A stretch of DNA of 29,457 nt from a virus. Of the stretch, positions 1 to 21,500 are shown piece by piece. The DNA lies in the UHGV virus genome UHGV-1280367. The stretch is one strand, 5' to 3'. The notes beneath the pieces are model-generated. The model was not told the DNA's origin. It did not search any database and saw only the letters and a program-made list of their open reading frames with translations. A program made the position numbers and the translations under genes. Position 1 is the first letter of the stretch. Each line of letters starts with the position of its first letter.

Positions 1-446
1 CAGTTGACGTTGACAGAACAACTTTCCATGGTTCTCCTGCTGTAGCTATCTATGCAATGGATGGAGCAATAGTTAAATGTACCAATGGAGAGTCTCAGAC
101 AACTACAGGTACAACAATTATTGCTCAGAACGCAAAAGTCAGCGCCGACGGGTTTAAAGTTAGAGGAAAACCAAGCAATGGATTCAGAGCCACGGCATCA
201 GGAAGAATATCAGCCAGAAATTCAGTAGTAGAAGAATCGGGGCAATATTCATTTTCTGCAGAAGGACTTGGTTCATTTATTGACGCAACAAACTCAACAT
301 CAGGAAGCGCATTTACAGGCTATAAAGCGAGTGGGGGCGGACAAATAAACGCAACAGGCACGACAACGACGGGGTCATATGTTGATGCGCCATATAATCC
401 TGAAATCAACACTACTGACAATAAGTTAACACTGATTAGTAAATGA
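1..446 (+). CDS. Tail fibre protein, C-terminal part (5' end lies outside the window)
   Basis: The frame of ORF 57..446 stays open back to base 3 with no stop, so the gene is 5'-truncated by the window. Gly/Ser/Thr-rich low-complexity tail typical of fibre tips. Sits directly upstream of the lysis cassette. Confidence 0.45.
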   Translation, partial: VDVDRTTFHGSPAVAIYAMDGAIVKCTNGESQTTTGTTIIAQNAKVSADGFKVRGKPSNGFRATASGRISARNSVVEESGQYSFSAEGLGSFIDATNSTSGSAFTGYKASGGGQINATGTTTTGSYVDAPYNPEINTTDNKLTLISK

Positions 447-2924: not shown

Positions 2925-2939
2925 TTACCTTAAAGGTAT
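2925..2939. promoter_or_regulatory. Operator-like palindrome TTACC-ttaaa-GGTAT upstream of int
   Basis: A copy of the 15-bp TTACC-N5-GGTAA motif that recurs across the window, 43 bp upstream of the int start. Confidence 0.4.
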
Positions 2940-2981
2940 ACTCTCATACCGTCATGAAAATGGTTTCTATACGGGTGAATT

Positions 2982-6808: not shown

Positions 6809-7708
6809 TTACTTCATTCTGAAGACGCGTTGTGTCGTTGTTGTTTTGAATTTTTCGAATAACTCAGGGTGTACTGACTGGAATAGCTTCTGGTCGAATC
6901 TGTTGCTGATCTGAGATTTCCATGTGCAGAGCGGCTTTCCGTCCAGGGTCAGGACTGAGTGCTCTTGCATGTACATCTTCAGCTTCTCTTCTGATATAGC
7001 TATTTCTTCTTCCAGTGATTTTCTGCGTGACTTCATGTCTCGTAGATCGTTGAATAGTGCGAGTGCCTTTCCGTCAGCCTCGATACTTGTACCGGCATCT
7101 TTCTCAAACATCAGTGATACATCGCTTACGCTGGTAGCTTCCGGCGGGTTAAGATTTTTCACTCGGTCCCAGAAAGCGATTTCTTTTTCTAAGATCGCCT
7201 GGATAGTTTCTTCATCACGCTCAACCCGATAGATTCGGAAGTCGTCGCCACCGATAAGCACACCGAAAACGCATACCTGTTTGTTTGTAACCATCAACCC
7301 GTGCATGGCCTGGGCCGTGTAATGCACAGGAATTGCATCTGTCTGGATTTCTCCCCATTCTTTGGCTTTGAACGGACTAACTGTTTTGATCTCAATGTTC
7401 TCGCCTGACGCTGCTTCTGCATCGATCTCAGCTGCAATAAAATCGTAATCACGGTGGATATAGCGGTTTCCGCGATGAACGATTTCCATCCCTGTTTCCT
7501 CAGAAAGCAGGTCTATTACGTATGGCTCCATACGCTGGCCACGCGTGAAAACTTTCTGCTTGCTTGGGTCTACTGGTTTGACACGTGGCTGGACCTTATC
7601 CAGATAAACCTCAAGCGGGGTGCGCCATGGGCTAATTCCAAGAATCCCTGCAACATCGCTTCCTCCGATGTATTTTGTTCTATCCATGATTCCAGCGTTC
7701 CGCATCAT
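6809..7708 (-). CDS. YqaJ-like (lambda-Exo fold) recombination exonuclease
   Basis: 299 aa. N-terminal IGGSDVAGILGISPWRTPLEVY is the YqaJ hallmark. Sits immediately upstream of recT as the expected exo/annealase pair. Confidence 0.7.
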   Translation of the reverse strand: MMRNAGIMDRTKYIGGSDVAGILGISPWRTPLEVYLDKVQPRVKPVDPSKQKVFTRGQRMEPYVIDLLSEETGMEIVHRGNRYIHRDYDFIAAEIDAEAASGENIEIKTVSPFKAKEWGEIQTDAIPVHYTAQAMHGLMVTNKQVCVFGVLIGGDDFRIYRVERDEETIQAILEKEIAFWDRVKNLNPPEATSVSDVSLMFEKDAGTSIEADGKALALFNDLRDMKSRRKSLEEEIAISEEKLKMYMQEHSVLTLDGKPLCTWKSQISNRFDQKLFQSVHPELFEKFKTTTTQRVFRMK

Positions 7709-8004
7709 GCCGCGTCCCTCTGCCCATCAATCTGATCAGCCAGATCCCAGCGGGCGATAATTGCCATTGCCTCGCGACGGTAGGCATCCATCAGTTCTTC
7801 GAACTCAGGGCTGTCTTTAGCAGCCTCCAGTACTTCCTGACGAACGCCTTTGCCTGTTACAACGTCGAAAGTTGAGGACAGTTGATGAAGTCGGATGCTC
7901 TCAATCAGTTCAACTTGTCGGTCATATAGCTGTTCTGACAGGCGGTAGTCCTTGTCGAATGCCAGCATGATTTTTTGAAGATTTTTCTGCTGATTAACGT
8001 TCAT
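7705..8004 (-). CDS. Hypothetical early protein
   Basis: About 100 aa from the ATG at 8004 (the track ORF extends to 8019). Overlaps the exonuclease start; no recognisable motif. Confidence 0.4.
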   Translation of the reverse strand: MNVNQQKNLQKIMLAFDKDYRLSEQLYDRQVELIESIRLHQLSSTFDVVTGKGVRQEVLEAAKDSPEFEELMDAYRREAMAIIARWDLADQIDGQRDAA

Positions 8005-8007
8005 TAT

Positions 8008-8159
8008 CAGCCCTCCCATATCTCGTTATCGTTGGCCACATCGCGAGCTTCTTTGCTGACGAAAGCCCACTTAATGCCTTCCTGTAAGGTGCGGAACTTC
8101 CAGCTCATGAATCCGCATGCAGTAACGCAGTACCAACCGTTGATGATTTTCCACTGCAT
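8008..8159 (-). CDS. Small hypothetical protein (50 aa), first gene of the leftward early operon
   Basis: Found by manual translation of the minus strand: MQWKIINGWYCVTACGFMSWKF..., stop 3 nt before the next gene's start. Below the ORF-track length cutoff. Confidence 0.3.
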
Positions 8160-8178
8160 AACTTGTTACCTCGGTCTG

Positions 8179-8255
8179 TTACCGTTGAGGTAATAATTAT
8201 GCTTATTTGGTTTGGTGTCAATAGATATGAGTTAAAAAAATTACCCGTAAGGTAA
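8179..8255. promoter_or_regulatory. Leftward early promoter/operator region with two TTACC-N5-GGTAA palindromes (8179..8193, 8241..8255)
   Basis: Two exact copies of the palindrome lie between the repressor terminator and the first leftward gene. Confidence 0.5.
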
Positions 8256-8265
8256 TCTATCTGGC

Positions 8266-8292
8266 AATAAAAAAGCCGCCATGAGGCGGCTT
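8266..8292 (-). terminator. Rho-independent terminator of the repressor gene
   Basis: Hairpin gccgcc-atga-ggcggc with an A6 run on the + strand, giving a U-run on the minus-strand transcript. Lies just downstream of the repressor stop. Confidence 0.7.
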
Positions 8293-8312
8293 ACTTGCTG
8301 AAAACTATAGTT

Positions 8313-8897
8313 TTATTGTTTGCTTTTTTCGTTCTGGTTGATGACAAATTCAATGTAACTTTCGATCTTTGCTTTCTCGGTTTCGGGTAACAATGCGTAG
8401 CGCGAGCGGTCATAGTTGATGGTCGCAGGGTCGTGCGGGTGAATCAGTAATTCATAGCCGTGACGCCCGAATGCGGATGCCACATTCTCCAGGGTGGAAA
8501 TGGAAACGCTAACCTCATTGTTTAACAGGCGGCTGATTGTCACCTGGGCGACGCCGGATGCGCGGTGAAGTTTTCCCTGTGTTGAAAGGTCGCGGCTTTC
8601 GCTCATCCAGCGTTCCAGGTTGTGAGCCGCCAGCTGACCAATGTCGCTTGGGCCGACAGGCTGAAAACCTTCCTGAGAAAGCGAGCGATCGATATCAAGC
8701 CAGTTACGGGGTTTATTGGCGGCAGCTTCAATTTTTCGCGCAACCTGGTCGCCGATAACCTTCTTGCCAAGAGCCCAGCGGTTTACCAGATTTGCCTGAG
8801 TTCCAAGTTTTTCTGCCATCCGCGTCTGAACACCATTGAATTCACGGTCGATCAAGTCGTTGAGATTTTGCCTGCGGACGTCCTGGATACTTTTCAT
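8313..8897 (-). CDS. Phage repressor (CI-like), two helix-turn-helix regions, no S24 peptidase domain
   Basis: 194 aa. XRE-type HTH pattern near the N-terminus and a second HTH-like segment around residues 110-150. Divergent from the Cro-like gene across an operator-rich intergenic region. Confidence 0.65.
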   Translation of the reverse strand: MKSIQDVRRQNLNDLIDREFNGVQTRMAEKLGTQANLVNRWALGKKVIGDQVARKIEAAANKPRNWLDIDRSLSQEGFQPVGPSDIGQLAAHNLERWMSESRDLSTQGKLHRASGVAQVTISRLLNNEVSVSISTLENVASAFGRHGYELLIHPHDPATINYDRSRYALLPETEKAKIESYIEFVINQNEKSKQ

Positions 8898-8952
8898 TTT
8901 CTGGAAAATCGCCTCATATATGAATCAGTAGATGATTCAATTTAAAGCAATA

Positions 8953-9015
8953 TTACCCAACAGGTAAATGCACCTCATAGGTAACTATCCTTGATTTTTG
9001 TTACCTTATGGGTGA
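8953..9015. promoter_or_regulatory. Immunity-region operator cluster, three palindromes (8953..8967, 8970..8984, 9001..9015)
   Basis: TTACC-caaca-GGTAA, GCACC-tcata-GGTAA and TTACC-ttatg-GGTGA in the 154-bp repressor/cro intergenic region, arranged like an OR1-OR2-OR3 set. Confidence 0.55.
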
Positions 9016-9051
9016 ATATTTATTATCTGAAATAAATATCAGGCAATAGCT

Positions 9052-9282
9052 ATGAGCGATAACGGACATTTCGATTTCAAAAAGCACTGGCTTGCACTTA
9101 CTCCGGATGAGCGTGAAGCCTTCGCACAGGAAGCCGGAACGACGAGTCACTATATCCAGACTCACTTAACAGGTAAGCGCAAAATGCCAGGTAAAGTATT
9201 GATGAATGGGCTTTTTAAAGCCTGTAAAACAAGACAATGGCTGCGCTCAAAAGCAGAACTGGCATACTTCTTCTACTCATGA
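9052..9282 (+). CDS. Cro-like (YdaS/Cro family) DNA-binding protein
   Basis: 76 aa divergent from the repressor. HTH-like segment LTPDEREAFAQEAGTTSHYIQTHLTGKRKMP. Confidence 0.6.
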   Translation: MSDNGHFDFKKHWLALTPDEREAFAQEAGTTSHYIQTHLTGKRKMPGKVLMNGLFKACKTRQWLRSKAELAYFFYS

Positions 9283-9304
9283 TATCCAGCCACAACCCTC
9301 TGTA

Positions 9305-9328
9305 GACCGCCATCCGGCGGTCTTTTCA
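9305..9328 (+). terminator. Rho-independent terminator downstream of the cro-like gene (tR1-like position)
   Basis: Hairpin gaccgcc-atcc-ggcggtc followed by ttttcat. Confidence 0.6.
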
Positions 9329-9337
9329 TATCTATTC

Positions 9338-9352
9338 GCACCTTAAAGGTAA
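9338..9352. promoter_or_regulatory. Operator-like site GCACC-ttaaa-GGTAA
   Basis: Shares the core accttaaaggta with the site upstream of int. Lies between the tR1-like terminator and the zinc-ribbon gene. Confidence 0.4.
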
Positions 9353-9432
9353 CAAAAAACCAAATATGGTTGATCTTTTTTTTGTGTCAGCACAAAATAA
9401 CCGTAATCCCAATACTAATAACAGGGATTACC

Positions 9433-9633
9433 ATGGAAATCATTACACGTATTGATGCCGCAAAGCGCGGACTTAAACGCTACTACACCGGAAAAACATG
9501 TAAGCACGGACATGACAGTGAACGCTGGGTTTACAACGGACACTGTGTTGAGTGCACCATGGAATCAAACCGTCGTATCAGGGCAGAGATTAAGCAGATC
9601 ATGATTAATTCCTCCCCACAACATTCAAGCTGA
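9433..9633 (+). CDS. Small zinc-ribbon protein (Cys/His cluster), possible cII-like regulator
   Basis: 66 aa from the ATG at 9433, with an AGGGA-type ribosome-binding site upstream. Motif C-x-H-G-H ... C-x-x-C. Assigned by position between cro and O; function unproven. Confidence 0.4.
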   Translation: MEIITRIDAAKRGLKRYYTGKTCKHGHDSERWVYNGHCVECTMESNRRIRAEIKQIMINSSPQHSS

Positions 9634-9648
9634 TAGCGGAGATTAATC

Positions 9649-10464
9649 ATGAGCAGACATGCAACAGATTGGGCCTGGGAGACAGATCCAGGTAGCTCGT
9701 CATTAAAGCTCATACTGCTCTCGATGGCTGACAGAGCCGATGAATATAACCTCTGCTACCCCAGCATAGAACGCCTCGTTAAAGACACTTGCCTGAATAA
9801 AAAAACCGTGCAGGCCGGGCTTATATCGCTCATGAAAATGGGGCTTATTTCAGATACCGGAGAGAGAAAGGGAGCGACGAAAAGAGTGCGGGTTTTCTCT
9901 CTTAATATAACCAAAAACGGGAACATTAAAGGCAACCGGGAAGGGGGTAATGAACCCGAAAACGGTAATGTTACCGAAAACGGGAATATACCCAAAAACG
10001 GGATGTTGAATGATCCCAAAAACGGGATGTTGAATGATCCCAAAAACGGGATCCAGAACCAGTCATATAACCAGTCATTTAACCAAGAGAGGGAGAGCAG
10101 GACAAAAACCGGGGATTCTGTTCCTCATGACCCCGGCGCAAACAACGCCGTGATGAATAACTTTGTTCCTCCTGGTGGGCCAGGGCAATTAGGCAAATTT
10201 GTCATGCATGAACAATGGCAGCCATCAGATGACTTTCTTCGGAAAAGCTCATTGCAGGGGATCTACCTGGACAGTCTGCCAACGGCACAGGAACTTGCAG
10301 AGTTCAGAATTTACTGGATGGCTGAGGGTAAGGCATACCATCAGGCACAGTGGGAGCAGAAGCTGGCAAGGCGGCTGCAGATTAGCAGACAGAAGCAATC
10401 AACATTACCTGATAACAACGTTCCGCACTGGAACAGCCCTGAAGCGTGGGAGGATTTCTTGTGA
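9649..10464 (+). CDS. Replication initiator (lambda O-like, N-terminal HTH, DnaT-like C-terminus)
   Basis: 271 aa. The N-terminus resembles the phage replisome-organiser N-domain; the gene contains DNA iterons; it is followed by a lambda P-like gene. Confidence 0.7.
   Translation: MSRHATDWAWETDPGSSSLKLILLSMADRADEYNLCYPSIERLVKDTCLNKKTVQAGLISLMKMGLISDTGERKGATKRVRVFSLNITKNGNIKGNREGGNEPENGNVTENGNIPKNGMLNDPKNGMLNDPKNGIQNQSYNQSFNQERESRTKTGDSVPHDPGANNAVMNNFVPPGGPGQLGKFVMHEQWQPSDDFLRKSSLQGIYLDSLPTAQELAEFRIYWMAEGKAYHQAQWEQKLARRLQISRQKQSTLPDNNVPHWNSPEAWEDFL
9911..10049. repeat. Origin-like iteron array: six direct repeats of CC(A/G)AAAACGG
   Basis: Copies start at 9911, 9956, 9974, 9992, 10016 and 10040 (spacings 45, 18, 18, 24, 24 bp). 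They encode the peptide repeats PKNGMLND and lie inside the initiator gene, as in lambda ori. Confidence 0.7.
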
Positions 10465-11246
10465 ACAACGTTTTTACCGCGATACAAAACCGTGACGGAG
10501 AAGCCCTTTCTCGCATGTCAGGTTATGAGCATCAGTACGTCAACAATGACAATGTGGTGAACATGTCAGCAGAGAGGCTTGTTGATGCCCTTTTCAAACA
10601 GCTGAAACAACTGTTTCCGGCGGCAGTGGTAACCAACCTGAAGACGCCAGAGCAGGAAGTTGCTGCAAAACAGCAGTGGATTGCTGCGTTTGCCGAAGGG
10701 GGAATACGTACCCGTGAACAGGTTTCTGCTGGTATGCGCCACGCCCGCGCCAGTGAATCTCCGTTCTGGCCGTCGCCAGGGCAATTCATCAAGTGGTGTA
10801 AAGACAGCAAGATGGTTCTTGGCGTCACCATTGACGATGTGATGGCGGAGTTTCACCGGTACAGCAAGGAAAAAAGTTTATATCCTGGTGGTCCCGAAAG
10901 ATTCCCGTGGCGGCATCCGGTTATGTACTGGGTCGTATGTGATACACGCCGTGCAATGTATCAGCGCCAGCTTAGCGAGATTGAGGTTGAGAAACACGCG
11001 CGCAGGCTGCTCGATGATTGGGCGAAAAAGGTGGCTTCCGGACAGCAGATACCCGATCCGGTGATCAGCATACAGGCAAAGCCAGAACCCATGAGTACAC
11101 CTCCGGACACAGGGAGAGACGTTTACCATCCACCAGGGCGAAGTTTCGGGTGCATGCCTAACGCCGCCACCCTGGGGGGAATAACACCGGCGCAGTGGCT
11201 GATGGAGGAATACAGGCGGGGAAAGGCGGCAGGATTTATCAAGTAA
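10446..11246 (+). CDS. Replication protein P-like helicase loader
   Basis: The block FPAAVVTNLK...QQWIAAFAEGGIRTREQVSAGMRHARASESPFWPSPGQFIKWC parallels lambda P (FPAS...RRQWVLAFRENGITTMEQVNAGMRVARRQNRPFLPSPGQFVAWC) as I recall it. Start could be GTG at 10446 or GTG at 10461 overlapping the O stop. Confidence 0.8.
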   Translation: MGGFLVNNVFTAIQNRDGEALSRMSGYEHQYVNNDNVVNMSAERLVDALFKQLKQLFPAAVVTNLKTPEQEVAAKQQWIAAFAEGGIRTREQVSAGMRHARASESPFWPSPGQFIKWCKDSKMVLGVTIDDVMAEFHRYSKEKSLYPGGPERFPWRHPVMYWVVCDTRRAMYQRQLSEIEVEKHARRLLDDWAKKVASGQQIPDPVISIQAKPEPMSTPPDTGRDVYHPPGRSFGCMPNAATLGGITPAQWLMEEYRRGKAAGFIK

Positions 11247-11251
11247 TACCA

Positions 11252-11271
11252 GCGCGATGGCGCATTTTTTT
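11252..11271 (+). terminator. Weak terminator-like hairpin plus T-run after the P-like gene
   Basis: gcgc-gatg-gcgc followed by a T7 run; the stem is only 4 bp. Confidence 0.3.
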
Positions 11272-11283
11272 ACGTCTCGATGA

Positions 11284-11360
11284 TTACCTTCTAGGTAATA
11301 AAATATTCTAAAATCTATTGATTTCGTGTCTTATGTGGTTTTTAATTACCTCAGAGGTAA
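11284..11360. promoter_or_regulatory. Two TTACC-N5-GGTAA palindromes (11284..11298, 11346..11360) upstream of the DUF1064-like gene
   Basis: TTACC-ttcta-GGTAA and TTACC-tcaga-GGTAA. The second overlaps the ribosome-binding region of the gene starting at 11364. Confidence 0.5.
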
Positions 11361-11363
11361 ATC

Positions 11364-11708
11364 ATGAGAAAACAGATACAGGCTCTTGGTCGACTCAAAA
11401 CAGGCCAGATGAACAAAACAGAATCTGCGTATTGCCAGCACCTTGAGCAGCGTAAACGTGCAGGGGAAATCGCCTGGTATCGATTCGAGGGTATCAAGCT
11501 GCGGTTAGCTGACAACACGTTCTATACGCCCGATTTTGCTGTGATGCTCGCCACCGGCGAGATGGAACTGCACGAAGTGAAAGGTTTCTGGACCGACGAC
11601 GCCAGAGTGAAAACCAAAGTCGCCGCAGATCAGTATCCGTTCCGAATCATCGGGGTAACGGTTAAACCAAAGAAAGCAGGTGGTGGCTGGAACATCGAAG
11701 AGTTCTGA
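11364..11708 (+). CDS. DUF1064-like small protein
   Basis: 114 aa; pattern AGEI...Y.PDF.V...E.HEVKG resembles the DUF1064 family common in lambdoid early regions (recognition by eye). Confidence 0.5.
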   Translation: MRKQIQALGRLKTGQMNKTESAYCQHLEQRKRAGEIAWYRFEGIKLRLADNTFYTPDFAVMLATGEMELHEVKGFWTDDARVKTKVAADQYPFRIIGVTVKPKKAGGGWNIEEF

Positions 11709-11769
11709 ATCGACGATCTTTTTAGTTATCAATGTAATCAATAAGTTATGTGGATAAGCGAGGGTAAAG

Positions 11770-12330
11770 ATGGAAAGTAATATCAAAGGGTTAGTTTACG
11801 CCGGGCATGAGATGGCTTCGGAACTGAAAGCAGAATGTGGTGCCGTTGATATGCGTAGTGTGGCAAAGCTGATCAGCGATTTGGCAACGCAACTGGAAGT
11901 GCAACTGGTGCGTGCTAATGCGATGGCGTCGGAGAATGAGGCGTTGAAGTCGAACCTGATTTACTGGGGCGGCGAAGATTCAGGGGCTGTCAGAAGTCCG
12001 CTTGATTACGCCCGTGCAGCCGGGCTGGAATCTGGAGAGGAGTTTGAGATGCAAGTGGCAGCCAGAATGCCGAACCTGACTTATCGCGTTGTGTCGAATT
12101 CCCGATTCAGAACAACAATAGAACTGGTTGACGGATCATTGCCGGAAACCCCAGCCACCGATGCTTTTCTGGCTGAAGTACGGGCGCAGGCGTTTAATGA
12201 CCTTTGCTCGGCGTTCGTTAAACACGCGAATCTCGCGGGAATGGATGATGGTGAGCTAGTGAGTCTTAAATATGCGACGGACGCCCTGCTGCATTGTGCG
12301 GAACAGCTTCGCAAAGGAGGCAACCAGTGA
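11770..12330 (+). CDS. Hypothetical protein
   Basis: 186-aa ORF with compact spacing to its neighbours; no recognisable motif. Confidence 0.4.
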   Translation: MESNIKGLVYAGHEMASELKAECGAVDMRSVAKLISDLATQLEVQLVRANAMASENEALKSNLIYWGGEDSGAVRSPLDYARAAGLESGEEFEMQVAARMPNLTYRVVSNSRFRTTIELVDGSLPETPATDAFLAEVRAQAFNDLCSAFVKHANLAGMDDGELVSLKYATDALLHCAEQLRKGGNQ

Positions 12331-15237: not shown

Positions 15238-15279
15238 ATACTGCCGCCAACTATGGCGGCTTTATTTTGCATGGTACTA

Positions 15280-15312
15280 TTACCACAACGGTAACTATTA
15301 CCACGGTGGTTA
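15280..15312. promoter_or_regulatory. Two operator-like palindromes immediately upstream of terS (15280..15294, 15298..15312)
   Basis: TTACC-acaac-GGTAA and the weaker variant TTACC-acggt-GGTTA, ending at the terS start codon. Confidence 0.4.
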
Positions 15313-17904: not shown

Positions 17905-17930
17905 AAAAAAATGCCCGGCGAACCGGGCGA
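17905..17930 (-). terminator. Intrinsic terminator (minus strand) between the tRNA and the cargo gene
   Basis: Minus-strand reading gcccgg-ttcg-ccgggc followed by ttttttt, then the cargo-gene ribosome-binding site and ATG. Confidence 0.65.
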
Positions 17931-18092
17931 ACTGGAAGCAATGAGTTATGCCTTCCGTGGCTGTACTGGTTTACAGCATGAAGTCATCGCAATGGCGTCC
18001 TGCTGTAAAAAGGGCGGTGATAGTCCTTCAAGGGAAACCATCACCGCCAAGCCCCCTGGAACTTCTGGCATCACGGTCCTTAGGCGTGATTC

Positions 18093-18169
18093 TGGCGTGG
18101 CATGCAGGATTCGAACCTGCGACCAACCGCTTAGAAGGCGGTTGCTCTGTCCAGCTGAGCTAATGCCAC
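18093..18169 (-). tRNA. tRNA-Arg, anticodon UCU
   Basis: Minus-strand sequence GTGGCATTAGCTCAGCTGGACAGAGCAACCGCCTTCTAAGCGGTTGGTCGCAGGTTCGAATCCTGCATGCCACGCCA folds by eye into a cloverleaf: 7-bp acceptor stem, D arm GCTC/GAGC, anticodon loop CTTCTAA, T arm GCAGG-TTCGAAT-CCTGC, encoded CCA. Close to E. coli argU as I recall it. Confidence 0.85.
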
Positions 18170-18491
18170 AACGCTGAGAGCACTTAGCCTGTTAAGGCGC
18201 CACACTTTGTCGCGGCTCCATAAATGCTCTCATCGTTGTACCCTCGTCTCTTCCGAGGTGTCACACCGAATCGCCTGGATGGTGAATCCCCGTGCGCGGA
18301 ATAAAACCGCTCGACTTGCACATTCCGGCTACCTGGTTCGTTTGCCCGAGCAAGGGAGGGTGCCCCTTAAACGTATCCAGACCGCTATCGGCGCATGTGC
18401 CATACGCCGTACTGCTCAAAATAAAAGCTCACTCCACCTGTTCAATTTAACGACAAGCCAGTCAGGTTAGTAACCGGAATGAACTCTTTGG

Positions 18492-18506
18492 TTACCTGAA
18501 AGGTAA
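18492..18506. promoter_or_regulatory. Operator-like palindrome TTACC-tgaaa-GGTAA upstream of the portal region
   Basis: Exact copy of the recurring motif, about 90 bp before the small ORF at 18597. Confidence 0.4.
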
Positions 18507-18596
18507 TAATTCGTGCGTTAAATGTCAACTGTCTACGATAAATAAATCATATGTGGTTAAATTGGTAATAATTTAATTGCGTACGGAGTCATTGAT

Positions 18597-18817: not shown

Positions 18818-20497
18818 ATGGCGGAAACAACTAAAGAGCGATTGAACAAACAGTTCGCACAACTTGAAAGCGAGCGTCAGTCGTTCGAGCCGCACTGGCG
18901 CGAGTTGAGTGATTACATCAACCCGCGTGGTTCCCGCTTTCTGACTTCTGAGGTCAACCGTAACGATCGACGCAATACACGCATTATTGATTCGACCGGG
19001 ACTATGGCGGCGCGCACTCTCGCCAGCGGCATGATGTCAGGCATCACAAGCCCCGCGCGTCCGTGGTTTCGCCTGGCTACGCCAGATCCTGAAATGATGG
19101 ATTATGGCCCTGTTAAGTTGTGGCTTGAGGCGGTGCAGAACCGCATGAACGATATGTTCAATAAGTCGAATCTCTATCAGTCGCTGCCGCAGTTATACGG
19201 AAGCCTCGGCACATACAGCACTGGTGCAATGGCAGTGCTGGAGGATGACGAGGACATCATTCGCACAATGCCATTCCCGATAGGAAGTTACTACCTGGCT
19301 AACTCACCTCGTGGCAGTGTGGACACCTGTTTTCGCAAGTTCTCTATGACTGTTCGTCAGCTTGTTCAGGAGTTCGGGCTAAATAACGTCAGCGAATCCG
19401 TAAAAAGCATGTGGGAAAGCGGCACCTACGAGAAGTGGATTGAAGTGATGCATTCGGTTTACCCGAACATTGACCGCGATACATCGAAGCTGGATAGCAA
19501 GAACAAGCCATTCAAATCGGTTTATTACGAGGTTGGTGGCGATAACGACAAGTTGTTGCGTGAGTCCGGATTCGATGAGTTTCCAATTATGGCTCCGCGC
19601 TGGGAAGTTAACGGCGAAGATGTTTATGGATCATCATGCCCGGGTATGCTGGCGCTTGGACCTGTTAAGGCATTGCAGCTTCTCCAGAAGCGCAAGTCGC
19701 AGTTGATTGATAAAGCCACCAATCCGCCGATGGTTGCTCCGACTTCCCTCAAGAATCAGCGCGCCTCCCTTCTTCCTGGCGACATCACGTATATCGATCA
19801 GATTACTGGTCATGATGGTTTCAGGCCTGCTTATCTGGTTAACCCCAGTACAGCAGATTTGGTGGCAGACATTCAGGACACTCGTCAAATCATTAACAGC
19901 GCCTACTTTGTCGATCTGTTCATGATGTTGCAGAACATCAATACCCGCTCGATGCCTGTTGAAGCGGTGATCGAAATGAAAGAAGAAAAACTTCTGATGT
20001 TGGGGCCGGTTCTGGAGCGTCTGAACGACGAATGTCTTAATCCTCTCATTGACCGCGCTTTCTCGATGATGGTGCGTAAAAACATGCTGCCGCCACCGCC
20101 TGACGCGATGGAAGGTATGCCCCTGAAGGTCGAATACATTTCCGTCATGGCTCAGGCGCAGAAGTCTATCGGCCTGTCCAGTCTGGCGTCTACGGTCAAC
20201 TTCATTGGTCAACTTGCGCAAGCGAAACCAGAAGCTCTCGACAAACTCAACGTTGATCAGGCGATCGATGCATTCGCTGATATGTCCGGAGTGTCTCCAA
20301 CCGTCATTGTTCCGCAGGAACAGGTTGAGCAGGCTCGCCAGCAACGGGCACAGCAACAACAGCAGCAACAAATGATGGAGATGGGGATGGCGGCGGCACA
20401 GGGTGCCAAGACGCTAAGCGAAGCTAAAACTTCGGATCCGAGTGTTTTGTCAGCTATGGCGAATGCAGTTAGTGGTCAGGGTGGGCAATCACAATGA
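18818..20497 (+). CDS. Portal (head-to-tail connector) protein, T7 gp8-like
   Basis: 559 aa. The C-terminal Gln-rich tail QARQQRAQQQQQQQMMEMGMAAAQGA parallels the T7 gp8 C-terminus (QKQQKMAQQSMQMGMDNGAAALAQG) as I recall it. Size and position fit. Confidence 0.75.
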   Translation: MAETTKERLNKQFAQLESERQSFEPHWRELSDYINPRGSRFLTSEVNRNDRRNTRIIDSTGTMAARTLASGMMSGITSPARPWFRLATPDPEMMDYGPVKLWLEAVQNRMNDMFNKSNLYQSLPQLYGSLGTYSTGAMAVLEDDEDIIRTMPFPIGSYYLANSPRGSVDTCFRKFSMTVRQLVQEFGLNNVSESVKSMWESGTYEKWIEVMHSVYPNIDRDTSKLDSKNKPFKSVYYEVGGDNDKLLRESGFDEFPIMAPRWEVNGEDVYGSSCPGMLALGPVKALQLLQKRKSQLIDKATNPPMVAPTSLKNQRASLLPGDITYIDQITGHDGFRPAYLVNPSTADLVADIQDTRQIINSAYFVDLFMMLQNINTRSMPVEAVIEMKEEKLLMLGPVLERLNDECLNPLIDRAFSMMVRKNMLPPPPDAMEGMPLKVEYISVMAQAQKSIGLSSLASTVNFIGQLAQAKPEALDKLNVDQAIDAFADMSGVSPTVIVPQEQVEQARQQRAQQQQQQQMMEMGMAAAQGAKTLSEAKTSDPSVLSAMANAVSGQGGQSQ

Positions 20498-20790
20498 CAG
20501 ATTACGAAGACGATCAACTGAAAGAAGAAAACGCCCGTAAGCAACGTGACATGGCGCAGCGTGAAATTGATGACATTCGCTTTGTCATGAGCAGTGAACA
20601 GGGGCGTCGCGTTGTCTGGTCTGTGCTGGAGAAAGGCCGGGTGTTTTCCGCTATCTCTCCGATGGACGCTATGGCAATGGCATTTTATGAGGGGCAACGC
20701 AATCTGGCGCTGGAGCTGTTTCAGCGCGTTATGGCGCATTGCCCTGAACAGTATTTGAAGATGGCCAAAGAGGCCAGTGAACAGGAGTGA
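20494..20790 (+). CDS. Hypothetical head-assembly protein
   Basis: 98-aa ORF translationally coupled between the portal and scaffold genes. Confidence 0.4.
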   Translation: MTDYEDDQLKEENARKQRDMAQREIDDIRFVMSSEQGRRVVWSVLEKGRVFSAISPMDAMAMAFYEGQRNLALELFQRVMAHCPEQYLKMAKEASEQE

Positions 20791-20792
20791 TC

Positions 20793-21500
20793 ATGAATTT
20801 ATTTGAGCGTTTGCTGTATCGCCGTCTTTGCAATGAGCAATCCACTGAAGGTGGCCAGGCAGATACAGCTTCAACGGGAGCAACTGAAACCACTCAGGGC
20901 TCGGGTGAAATGCAGGAGCAAACCCAGTCGCAGGATAACTCCCAGGGGACTGACTCTGAGAAAGGTTCTGAAGCTCAGAAAACTGAGGGAGAGCTTGCTG
21001 CTGAAAAAGCCAATACCGAAGAAGCAGAAAAGGATAAGAAGCCAGAGGGTGCGCCTGAGAAGTACGAGTTTCAGGCTGCCGAAGGCGTAGAGCTGGATAC
21101 AGAAGCGTTGAAGGAATTCGAGCCGGTGGCGCGAGAACTTAACCTGACCAACGAGCAAGCGCAAAAGCTGGTTGATGCTTATCCGAAGATTCTGGCAGGT
21201 GTTCAGCAGCGCCAGGCAGAAGCCTGGCAGAAAACAACCGAGCAGTGGGCTGCGGATGTAAAAGCTGACAAAGAAATCGGTGGCGACAAGTTGATTTCTA
21301 ACCTTAGCGCCGCACAGCGTGCGCTTGACCAGTTCGGGACACCTGAACTCAAAGAATATCTGAACACCACCGGGCTGGGTAATCACCCTGATCTGGTCAA
21401 AACGTTCGTGAAAATCGGAAAGGCGATGTCTGAAGATGGCATGGTCACCGGTGGTAATGAAGGCCAGCGTAGTGCGGCCGAAGTGCTCTATGGCAAATAA
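20793..21500 (+). CDS. Scaffolding protein
   Basis: Highly acidic, Glu/Gln/Lys-rich, predicted-helical protein between the portal and capsid genes. ATG at 20793 with an AGGAG ribosome-binding site. Confidence 0.65.
   Translation: MNLFERLLYRRLCNEQSTEGGQADTASTGATETTQGSGEMQEQTQSQDNSQGTDSEKGSEAQKTEGELAAEKANTEEAEKDKKPEGAPEKYEFQAAEGVELDTEALKEFEPVARELNLTNEQAQKLVDAYPKILAGVQQRQAEAWQKTTEQWAADVKADKEIGGDKLISNLSAAQRALDQFGTPELKEYLNTTGLGNHPDLVKTFVKIGKAMSEDGMVTGGNEGQRSAAEVLYGK

Follow-up and report, generated by a model that had tools for sequence, protein, structure and literature searches.

Dispersed palindromic operators, probably of the prophage repressor Rep, in a phiV10-like Uetakevirus genome

INTRODUCTION

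For Uetakevirus, the dispersed operator set of a Rep/Ant-type repressor is already known from databases and the literature. The RefSeq record of phage ε15 (NC_004775.2) labels seven sites of the kind studied here as "protein_bind: repressor, lysogeny," including those at terS, at gp3/portal, and at the tail-fiber gene. In phage SPC32H, according to secondary sources, the repressor Rep is a noncleavable tetramer that binds palindromic sites, and the antirepressor Ant breaks this tetramer. Overexpression of the ZX5 repressor abolished free phage and lowered holin and endolysin transcripts by >99.9%; the ZX5 paper gives no operator sequence. Outside phages, Rco of the Bacillus plasmid pLS20, which has a TetDloop tetramerization domain, loops DNA between operators (PMC9986798).

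We analyzed a 29,457-nt stretch of the virus genome UHGV-1280367 (here, the window), which belongs to a phiV10-like Uetakevirus (97 to 98% identity). A sequence-only reading had noticed that the palindrome TTACC-N5-GGTAA recurs in front of most operons; this observation is correct yet not new, because the same site is already annotated for the prophage repressor of the ε15/phiV10 group. The window shares with the ε15 gp38 system the palindrome, its syntenic positions, the genus, and an orthologous repressor. The two differ in their repressors, which are 43% identical overall (54% in the N-terminal domain), and in their operators: ε15 carries three leftward operators instead of two, and the middle and right operators of its switch are exact. 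The ε15 record labels 7 of its 15 sites, none of them in the rep–cro region, and the phiV10 record labels none. With SPC32H, the window has in common a full-length homologous repressor and the operator motif (10 exact copies in the SPC32H genome); repressor identity is again 43%, and the antirepressor gene lies outside the window, the phiV10 Ant homolog being 88% identical to SPC32H Ant. Rco resembles Rep in combining an N-terminal helix-turn-helix (HTH) with a C-terminal tetramerization domain whose fold is that of SPC32H Rep, whereas Rep has an extra middle dimerization domain, and the loop proposed for it, at 62 bp, would be much tighter than those described for Rco. Looping of the Rco type would fit the conserved 62-bp operator pairs described below.

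As in the CI/Cro system of λ, the divergent repressor and cro-like genes are separated by a row of three palindromic operators, one operator overlaps the rightward promoter, and the leftward promoter has operators of its own. In contrast to λ, Rep lacks a RecA-stimulated S24 self-cleavage domain, the leftward promoter is flanked by two operators 62 bp apart instead of three adjacent ones, and operators occur beyond OL/OR (at 9338, 11284/11346, 15280/15298, and 18492), where they precede packaging, morphogenesis, and other units. Dispersal of the sites of one repressor over a genome is also a property of the phage P1 C1 operators and the mycobacteriophage L5 gp71 stoperators, which are asymmetric; L5 has some 30 stoperators, which share one orientation and are found within transcription units. 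The abstract of a paper on phage L1 mentions multiple asymmetric operators. The window would share with P1 and L5 the direct control of many units through many dispersed sites of one prophage repressor, but its sites are symmetric and promoter-proximal, with about 12 to 15 per genome. Being perfect palindromes in intergenic DNA, they are not stoperators of the L5 type.

RESULTS

The exact palindrome (TTACCNNNNNGGTAA) occurs seven times in the window (8179, 8241, 8953, 11284, 11346, 15280, and 18492), and none of 100 dinucleotide-preserving shuffles contained any exact TTACC-N5-GGTAA (0 expected). When up to one mismatch was allowed, which added 2925, 9001, 15298, and 662, 11 sites were found versus 0.31 expected, with a shuffle maximum of 2. 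Two-mismatch stringency had a high background (31 found versus about 12 in shuffles); the sites at 8970 and 9338, both GCACC-N5-GGTAA, are each two mismatches from TTACC-N5-GGTAA. Phage λ (48.5 kb) and 50 kb of Escherichia coli K-12 contained no exact copy; a similar density in unrelated sequence, which would have spoken against the sequence-only reading, was thus not found there. All 12 coordinates in that reading were confirmed, 8970 and 9338 at two mismatches.

Intergenic DNA makes up 8.6% of the window and holds all 12 of these copies (7 of 7 exact sites; 10 of the 11 sites with up to one mismatch), given a terS start at the ATG at 15312/15315, as in ε15. The remaining one-mismatch site, at 662, is inside a phage lysis-cassette gene and is best explained by chance, consistent with the 0.31 expected. 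The left end of the window, considered as possible host DNA (guaA), proved to belong to the phage and consists of the end of the tail spike and the lysis cassette; this cassette lacks the operator that relatives carry there.

Among all 5-Nk-5 palindromes (k = 0 to 11), TTACC-N5-GGTAA topped the list in the window as well as in five relatives, making it the most overrepresented palindrome of this form in six Uetakevirus genomes. The extended consensus from 46 exact sites in five genomes is the 17-mer A-TTACC-W5-GGTAA-T, in which the stem is fixed and the spacer freely variable. The ε15 genome paper by Kropinski in 2007 reportedly gives a 17-bp consensus of the form A-TTACC-N5-GGTAA-T. Taken as an operator set of this form, the window has seven exact and three one-mismatch copies.

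The palindrome stands at syntenic positions in six genomes from phages of four host genera (Escherichia, Salmonella, Enterobacter, and Klebsiella), and the operator spacings of 62, 17 to 18, and 30 to 31 bp are conserved among the relatives. The OL1–OL2 spacing is 62 bp in phiV10, Tyrion, ε15, and SPC32H and 63 bp in BUCT711. The sites at terS (the first of which is annotated as repressor binding at 12 to 27 in ε15), at gp3/portal (2931 to 2947 in ε15), at the leftward-promoter pair, and in the replication region match the repressor-annotated sites of ε15 one to one. The 8970 slot is the middle of three operators in 5 of 5 aligned genomes, and 9338 aligns with GTACC/ACACC/ATACC-N5-GGTAA in 6 of 6; judging from these alignments, both are positionally conserved operator slots despite their two mismatches.

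Table 1. Putative operators, promoters, and associated genes in the window
Feature	Coordinates	Strand	Description
Doubtful operator upstream of int	2925..2939	.	TTACC-N5-GGTAT; between inverted integrase arm-type sites GTGACGGTAT (2916–2925) and ATACCGTC (2946–2953)
OL1 operator	8179..8193	.	Exact; abuts −10 of leftward early promoter, covers about −7 to +8
Leftward early promoter	8193..8221	-	TTGACA-17-AATTAT; 10/12 matches; last T of −10 is first T of OL1
OL2 operator	8241..8255	.	Exact; 62 bp from OL1; 19 nt upstream of −35
Prophage repressor Rep	8313..8897	-	194 aa; N-terminal HTH, middle HTH-like dimerization, and C-terminal tetramerization/antirepressor-binding domains
Rep-proximal operator, rep–cro switch	8953..8967	.	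Exact
Middle switch operator	8970..8984	.	GCACC-N5-GGTAA, 2 mismatches; slot exact in ε15, SPC32H, and BUCT711
Cro-proximal operator	9001..9015	.	TTACC-N5-GGTGA; in spacer of rightward promoter
Cro-like small HTH protein	9052..9282	+	76 aa; HTH-like segment AGTTSHYIQTHLT invariant in five genomes
Weak operator	9338..9352	.	GCACC-N5-GGTAA; after cro terminator
Upstream operator, DUF1064 gene-block promoter	11284..11298	.	Exact
DUF1064-block promoter	11318..11346	+	TTGATT-17-TTTAAT; read from alignment; CTATTGA and −10 conserved in six genomes
Downstream operator, DUF1064 block	11346..11360	.	Exact; 62 bp from 11284; contains ribosome-binding site of 11364 gene
First terS operator	15280..15294	.	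Exact; abuts conserved extended −10 TGgTACTAT (15272–15280)
Second terS operator	15298..15312	.	TTACC-N5-GGTTA; 18 bp from first; ends at terS ATG
tRNA-Arg(UCU)	18093..18169	-	Followed by terminator 18048→18013
tRNA/portal divergent-region operator	18492..18506	.	Exact; between leftward tRNA-Arg unit and rightward gp3/portal operon
Candidate leftward promoter	18500..18528	-	TTGACA-17-TACCTT; −10 within 18492 operator; GTCAA invariant in six genomes; promoter putative

Conserved core-promoter elements overlap or interlock with the operator sites (Table 1). At three promoters (leftward early, DUF1064 block, and terS), the last T of the −10 element is also the first T of an operator, so that bound Rep would, judging from position, cover the start site. 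The leftward early and DUF1064-block promoters have the same geometry (operator, 19 nt, −35, 17 nt, −10, operator), and in five genomes the −35 of the former (GTCAATAG on the + strand) does not vary. The latter was missed by the promoter scan because position 2 of its −10 is T. In the switch region, the conserved rightward −35 TTGATT (8993 to 8998) directly precedes the operator at 9001. A terminator (15243 to 15260) precedes the first terS operator; the σ70 scan called no promoter at terS or int, and the terS promoter is based on the conserved extended −10 read from the alignment.

The operators at 9338 and 18492 are located about 60 to 80 bp upstream of rightward promoters (for 9338, about 60 bp from the start of the conserved TTGATC-17-CAAAAT promoter of the 9433–9633 gene) and could not alone occlude RNA polymerase at these promoters. 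The site described in the sequence-only reading as lying in front of the portal block is indeed an exact operator, although the region proved to be divergent, with a leftward tRNA-Arg. This tRNA is likely the product of the leftward unit at 18492, and the site probably also gates the leftward tRNA-Arg promoter.

A site had also been placed upstream of int, and a one-mismatch copy does occur there (2925), but it is confounded with integrase arm sites. We see about an even chance that this site, and only this one, belongs to the P' arm of attP (integrase/excisionase binding) and is not a Rep operator. It is flanked by GTGACGGTAT and inverted ATACCGTC; the GGTAT of its right half is identical to the end of the arm-type site, and this mismatch is fixed in 6 of 6 genomes. 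Moreover, the ε15 record lists four copies of GTGACGGTAT as integrase sites but gives the equivalent palindrome no repressor label. The left half, however, is a perfect TTACC with the correct N5 spacing, and the int start codon lies 43 bp downstream of the site, a distance at which an int promoter under repressor control would be plausible.

Rep matches SPC32H Rep (PDB 5D50) over its full length (E value, 3.5e-42), its residues 89 to 190 align with the tetramer fragment 5D4Z, and it shares 99.5% identity with the phiV10 and ZX5 repressors. The recognition helix, NLVNRW, does not vary among five genomes, though overall identity drops to 43%; this helix and the 5D50 match give the window the orthologous repressor and conserved helix expected of an ε15-type operator set. 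The Pfam matches of Rep were HTH families only, with HTH_3 at residues 106 to 147, and there was no Pfam match to Peptidase_S24. Rep is accordingly classed here, by homology, as a putative noncleavable repressor with a C-terminal tetramerization and Ant-binding domain, and its N-terminal HTH is predicted to be the sole DNA-binding domain. The proposal that a dual-HTH repressor binds the sites is supported as to the repressor; dual DNA binding is not, since HTH_3 (106 to 147) falls in the crystallized dimerization/tetramerization-core fragment. The Cro-like protein had no Pfam match and may share some operators with Rep.

We estimate a probability of about 0.85 that the palindromes serve as operators for Rep, the lysogeny repressor that the phage itself encodes and the ortholog of ε15 gp38 and SPC32H Rep. 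The ε15 annotation, the homology of Rep, the overlap with promoters, the ZX5 overexpression result, and Pseudomonas phage PseuP_224 all favor the proposed operator network, placed before most units and under one DNA-binding protein. Within the genus, the recognition helices of Rep and the Cro-like protein are as invariant as the motif, which leaves no covariation to tell the two proteins apart; the cI of PseuP_224 was used as the comparison instead. This distant siphovirus encodes a cI whose N-terminal domain is of the Rep type (E value, 1e-12) and has four TTACC-N4-GGTAA sites (0.28 expected), on both sides of cI. Its recognition helix is ANYISRC, versus ANLVNRW here; the half-site is nevertheless the same. 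The open reading frame (ORF) adjoining cI showed no similarity to the Cro-like protein. Because such sites flank this cI, the TTACC half-site appears to go with the Rep-type N-terminal domain and not with a Cro-like protein or host factor. Full-text searches of the literature on this motif and on operators of ε15 or its genus yielded no useful result.

DISCUSSION

The sequence-only reading had kept the Cro-like protein and a host factor as alternative binders, and PseuP_224 points away from both, toward the Rep-type domain, although the Cro-like protein may still bind a subset of sites. We regard it as improbable that this protein, in place of Rep, recognizes the palindrome as a genome-wide lytic regulator. 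Its gene adjoins the triple operator, its HTH-like segment is invariant in 5 of 5 genomes, and λ Cro and CI share operators; yet the ε15 curators gave the sites to the repressor, the half-sites in PseuP_224 accompany a Rep-type domain next to a small ORF unlike the Cro-like protein, and repressor overexpression by itself shuts the phage down (ZX5). Still less credible is an enterobacterial transcription factor that the phage borrows to tie its promoters to host physiology. Such a factor would account for the same motif in phages of Escherichia, Salmonella, Enterobacter, and Klebsiella, hosts that share many regulators, but the 50 kb of E. coli K-12 and λ hold no exact site, every motif-bearing genome encodes a repressor with the conserved recognition helix, and the half-site is also found beside the Rep-type cI of a Pseudomonas phage. 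To our knowledge, no E. coli regulator has a TTACC-N5-GGTAA consensus.

A role of the palindromes as hairpins in RNA or DNA, for example as processing sites, attenuators, or cruciforms, instead of as protein operators has a probability close to nil in our estimate. Each palindrome does fold into a 5- to 7-bp hairpin, and the ε15 annotation includes predicted RNase III sites for some of these intergenic regions. These hairpins are weak, however (−3.3 to −7.2 kcal/mol), the spacer varies freely around the fixed stem in the 46 exact sites, degenerate copies carry uncompensated mismatches (GCACC…GGTAA and TTACC…GGTGA), and several palindromes, located upstream of promoters, would escape transcription. 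The RNA-hairpin reading was rejected on the weak folding energies and uncompensated mismatches; stems that are invariant, with mismatches never compensated, argue for protein–DNA recognition over RNA pairing.

With Rep as the binder, the half-sites of each 15- to 17-bp site, one helical turn apart, would be read by paired N-terminal HTH domains. Because Rep is a tetramer in SPC32H, and presumably here, one molecule would offer two HTH pairs, which would fit the occurrence of sites in twos. At the leftward early and DUF1064-block promoters, where the second operator is exactly 62 bp upstream (about six helical turns), a tetramer could clamp both operators, with the promoter enclosed between them. 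The −35/−10 spacer of the rightward promoter is filled by an operator, and two more are located upstream over the rep promoter region. The genome is divided into terminator-bounded units, nearly every one of which has at least one operator; we therefore propose that one repressor silences the early, replication, packaging, and morphogenesis units directly. Induction would proceed through a LexA-controlled antirepressor, as is known for SPC32H, and not through repressor cleavage.

A broader reading, which we put forward tentatively and consider rather doubtful, is that Rep is the single direct gatekeeper of essentially all units, with a 62-bp clamp loop, and that lytic timing is set by differences in operator occupancy and a second factor on AACCATATATGGTT, not by a λ-like antitermination/late-activator cascade. 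The units concerned would be the early, replication, tRNA, packaging, and morphogenesis units and, in relatives, those of the tail fiber, antirepressor, and lysis. In the clamp loop, one tetramer would bridge both operators, with the RNA polymerase site inside a very tight loop. The ε15 annotation anticipates that the sites are dispersed, but neither their common geometry nor looping nor the second motif.

A real regulatory code was thus recovered by a reader with the sequence alone, and the ε15 operator annotation is carried over to phiV10-like E. coli phages, whose records lack such labels. According to reviews, phiV10 derivatives serve as O157 reporter phages, and knowledge of the Rep-gated promoters is therefore useful for engineering. 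Two features may go beyond the record, namely the second palindrome and the conserved 62-bp geometry of the operators that flank a promoter. The 8-mer ATGTGGTT was not enriched by itself (2 found versus 1.2 expected); it is the right half of an enriched 14-bp palindrome. The palindrome AACCATATATGGTT colocalizes with the operators.

Palindrome enrichment and location

The palindrome TTACC-N5-GGTAA (TTACCNNNNNGGTAA) was found in seven exact copies in the 29,457-base window (8179, 8241, 8953, 11284, 11346, 15280, and 18492), compared with none in any of 100 dinucleotide-preserving shuffles. With at most one mismatch allowed, there were 11 matches versus 0.31 expected, the additional sites being at 2925, 9001, 15298, and 662. 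TTACC-N5 also ranked first in an unbiased tally of all palindromes in the window (X5-Nk-rc(X5); k = 0 to 11), and no exact TTACC-N5-GGTAA was found in phage λ or in 50 kb of E. coli K-12. The enrichment proposed by the sequence-only reading was thus borne out against both shuffled and unrelated sequences. The same holds for the proposed intergenic location: intergenic DNA constitutes 8.6% of the window (as computed from a gene list built on the phiV10 annotation) but holds all seven exact sites and 10 of the 11 with at most one mismatch. The match at 662 lies within a gene of the lysis cassette and is what chance allows, given the expectation of 0.31.

Ten of the 12 positions originally listed are within one mismatch of the palindrome. 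The other two (8970 and 9338) each read GCACC-N5-GGTAA, two mismatches away, a level at which the background is high (31 matches in the window versus approximately 12 in shuffles); these two are therefore upheld by conserved position, counts aside. Site 8970 occupies the middle operator slot of the switch, which is conserved in alignments, and 9338 is aligned to an xxACC-N5-GGTAA site in every genome.

Conservation across the genus and existing annotation

Across bases 7000 to 12000, the window shares 97 to 98% identity with three members of the genus Uetakevirus, namely, Escherichia phage phiV10 and the closely related ZX5 and PAS61. We compared the window with the whole genomes of ε15, SPC32H, phiV10, Enterobacter phage Tyrion, and Klebsiella phage BUCT711. 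In each of these five relatives, TTACC-N5-GGTAA was the commonest 5-Nk-5 palindrome (8 to 11 exact copies per genome), and positional classes of sites were common to all six genomes (see the table). The extended consensus of 46 exact sites was A-TTACC-W5-GGTAA-T, with a core, ACC-N5-GGT, that showed no variation.

The RefSeq record of ε15 contains seven protein_bind features labeled "repressor" (note, "lysogeny"), every one of which coincides with a TTACC-N5-GGTAA site. Both the dispersed palindrome set and its attribution to the repressor were therefore already on record for ε15, the type phage of this genus. In the phiV10 record, repressor sites are not annotated (terminators only). Judged by motif, synteny, and cognate repressor, the set in the window belongs, at the sequence level, to the ε15/SPC32H family of Rep operators. 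Its working would partly resemble that of λ OR/OL; unlike in the λ system, however, Rep lacks a self-cleavage domain, and the sites extend beyond the immunity region. The P1 C1 and L5 gp71 networks are likewise genome-wide, whereas the sites in the window are symmetric and promoter proximal.

Operators, promoters, and associated features in the window and related genomes
Genome	Feature	Position	Strand	Description
ε15	Repressor feature	12–27		Upstream of terS
ε15	Repressor feature	2931–2947		Upstream of gp3/portal
ε15	Repressor feature	19895–19911		Upstream of tail fibre gene
ε15	Repressor features	32479–32494, 32554–32570, 32616–32632		Leftward promoter
ε15	Repressor feature	35906–35922		Replication region
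All six	int			One-mismatch site upstream
All six	Leftward early promoter			Site pair, spacing 62 bp (63 bp in BUCT711)
All six	rep/cro-like interval			Three sites, spacings 17 and 30–31 bp
All six	cro terminator			Weak site downstream
All six	DUF1064/resolvase block			Site pair upstream, spacing 62 bp
All six	terS			Site pair, spacing 18 bp, ending at start
All six	gp3/portal block			One site upstream
Relatives	Antirepressor, tail-fibre genes, lysis cassette			Upstream sites, outside this window
Window	Leftward early promoter	8221→8193	−	TTGACA-17-AATTAT; 10/12 matches
Window	DUF1064-block promoter	Operators 11284–11298, 11346–11360		Operator, 19 nt, TTGATT, 17 nt, TTTAAT, operator; layout as leftward early promoter
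Window	Rightward promoter	−35 8993–8998; operator 9001–9015		TTGATT, conserved; operator in spacer
Window	terS unit	Terminator 15243–15260		Followed by conserved extended −10 TGgTACTAT
Window	tRNA-Arg(UCU)	18093–18169	−	ARAGORN; Rfam 71.7 bits; leftward of 18492
Window	Strong terminator	18048→18013	−	Downstream of tRNA-Arg
Window	AACCATATATGGTT sites	464–477, 9358–9371, 18545–18558, 4643–4656

Gene order of the window

The reported attP core of ZX5 (ATTGAGTGGGAATGATT) is present at 2775–2791. Given this position and the matches, the window runs in the order lysis, attP, int, leftward early genes, rep, cro-like, replication, nin-like, terS/terL, tRNA region, portal, and structural genes. A host origin of the left end was considered and rejected: bases 1–446 hold the terminal part of a tail-spike-like gene, followed at 513–2790 by sequence that matches a phage lysis cassette (holins, GH19 endolysin, and DUF2514). 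No nucleotide match to the tail-spike-like gene end was found in the phage collection searched. This gene end adjoins the lysis cassette, and the O-antigen acetylase module is missing, unlike in phiV10 and ε15. The cassette is without the upstream operator that relatives possess because the tail-spike gene runs straight into it.

Promoter architecture

Operator and promoter positions were observed directly, and from them we infer the mechanism outlined here. The leftward early promoter and operator 8179–8193 overlap by a single T (the last in the promoter, the first in the operator), and operator 8241–8255 starts 19 nt upstream of the −35 element; every element of this promoter and of both its operators is conserved. 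At this promoter and at that of the DUF1064 block, the operators are 62 bp (approximately 5.9 helical turns) apart and so lie on the same face of the helix. One Rep tetramer could grip both operators, enclosing the promoter between them. Operators 8970 and 8953 are upstream of the rightward promoter, over the region where rep transcription must originate. In the terS unit, the final T of the extended −10 is the first base of operator 15280, and the second operator, 18 bp further, ends at the ATG. With the RefSeq phiV10 terS start (TTG, equivalent to 15234), the coding region would cross the terminator and both operators; that start is probably wrong, the likely start being ATG 15312/15315, as in ε15.

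Operators 9338 and 18492 each precede a rightward promoter by 60 to 80 bp, a distance at which neither alone could block RNA polymerase; they may act via a partner half-site, looping, or the opposite strand. Operator 18492, noted earlier as preceding the portal block, does so, but within a divergent region that probably also serves a leftward unit. A leftward TTGACA, kept in all six genomes, is separated by 17 nt from a TACCTT that lies within the operator, and leads toward a tRNA-Arg gene and terminator; phiV10, SPC32H, and BUCT711 carry this tRNA in the equivalent position. On the basis of these features, operator 18492 probably gates the tRNA unit in addition to, or in place of, the portal operon. 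The tRNA gene lies beneath a plus-strand ORF (17911–18177) that is the counterpart of the "hypothetical protein" phiV10p04 and has probably been miscalled.

The site upstream of int (2925) is present with one mismatch in all six genomes, its GGTAT "mismatch" being fixed, but a repressor role for it is confounded by integrase sites. It sits between GTGACGGTAT (2916–2925) and an inverted copy, ATACCGTC (2946–2953). In the ε15 record, GTGACGGTAT is annotated four times as an integrase binding site, and the palindrome before int is not labeled a repressor site. Site 2925 may be a component of attP, a site through which Rep controls int, or both at once. Repeats of the arm-type site (GACGGTAT at 2695, 2918, 3153, and 3243; inverted at 2946) are arranged around the attP core, with two copies within the int coding region.

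The repressor and its probable assignment to the palindrome

The 194-aa ORF at 8313–8897 matched the Salmonella phage SPC32H repressor over its full length (PDB 5D50; E = 3.5e-42), and residues 89–190 matched the tetrameric fragment 5D4Z. Pfam detected a clear HTH_3 at residues 106–147, inside the 5D4Z-matching part, and a weak HTH-like match at 21–61. According to a secondary source, SPC32H Rep has an N-terminal DNA-binding domain, a middle dimerization domain, and a C-terminal tetramerization domain that also binds the antirepressor. The "dual-HTH repressor" of the sequence-only reading is therefore a repressor, but with one DNA reader and one dimerization module. A second secondary source describes a tetramer that binds palindromic DNA, with paired DNA-binding domains supplied by different dimers, and that is broken by the antirepressor; the dimer binds poorly. 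Overexpression of the ZX5 repressor, 99.5% identical to Rep, has been reported to abolish free phage and to decrease transcripts of endolysin by 99.99% and of holin by 99.97%.

Rep identity drops to 43% over the five genomes (window versus ε15: N-terminal domain, 54%; middle domain, 36%; C-terminal part, 48%). The helix NLVNRW showed no variation, which fits a constant half-site. The antirepressors of phiV10 (20543–20800) and SPC32H (19676–19936) are 88% identical, though the repressors share only 43%; the few residues that are invariant in the C-terminal part of Rep may be where Ant makes contact, and the two phages may be capable of cross-induction.

Sequence comparisons favor Rep, the candidate originally named, over the Cro-like protein (9052–9282) and a host factor. 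The HTH-like segment of the Cro-like protein is also invariant, and so comparison within the genus cannot tell the two proteins apart. The distinction comes from Pseudomonas phage PseuP_224, a λ-like siphovirus in whose cI (10906–11820) the N-terminal domain is of the Rep type (39% identity over 71 residues; E = 1e-12) and the remainder, judged from its sequence, is probably a LexA-like self-cleavage domain. TTACC-N4-GGTAA occurs four times in this genome (0.28 expected), twice on either side of cI and nowhere else. The half-site therefore tracks the Rep-type domain across host, virion type, and repressor architecture. The comparison also shows that genome-wide dispersal is a trait of the genus Uetakevirus and not of the Rep-type domain. 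An unannotated 76-aa ORF begins approximately 100 bp to the right of cI, and no similarity to the Cro-like protein was found in the small ORF beside cI. The Cro-like protein is thus unlikely to be the sole reader of the palindrome; it may share some operators, by analogy with λ, in which Cro shares operators with the repressor.

Binding by a host factor is also unlikely, with the λ and K-12 controls empty and the half-site recurring in a Pseudomonas phage. If the palindromes instead acted as RNA hairpins, these would be weak (−3.3 to −7.2 kcal/mol); moreover, a compensatory stem change was never seen, and degenerate copies keep uncompensated mismatches. Recognition by Rep remains the favored reading.

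A second palindrome

A second palindrome, AACCATATATGGTT (core, ACC-N6-GGT), had four matches in the window at up to two mismatches, compared with 0.05 expected. It was not found in λ, in 50 kb of K-12, or in the rep–cro region, and it is not annotated in the ε15 record. The sites are in or beside the lysis, p42, and portal promoters, at 20, 41 to 44, or 53 nt from a Rep operator. Two details possibly extend beyond the existing record: this second palindrome, colocalized with the operators, and the 62-bp spacing of the flanking operators, which is identical at two promoters. Copies of AACCATATATGGTT were also present in phiV10 (five), Tyrion (five), SPC32H (three), ε15 (two), and BUCT711 (one).
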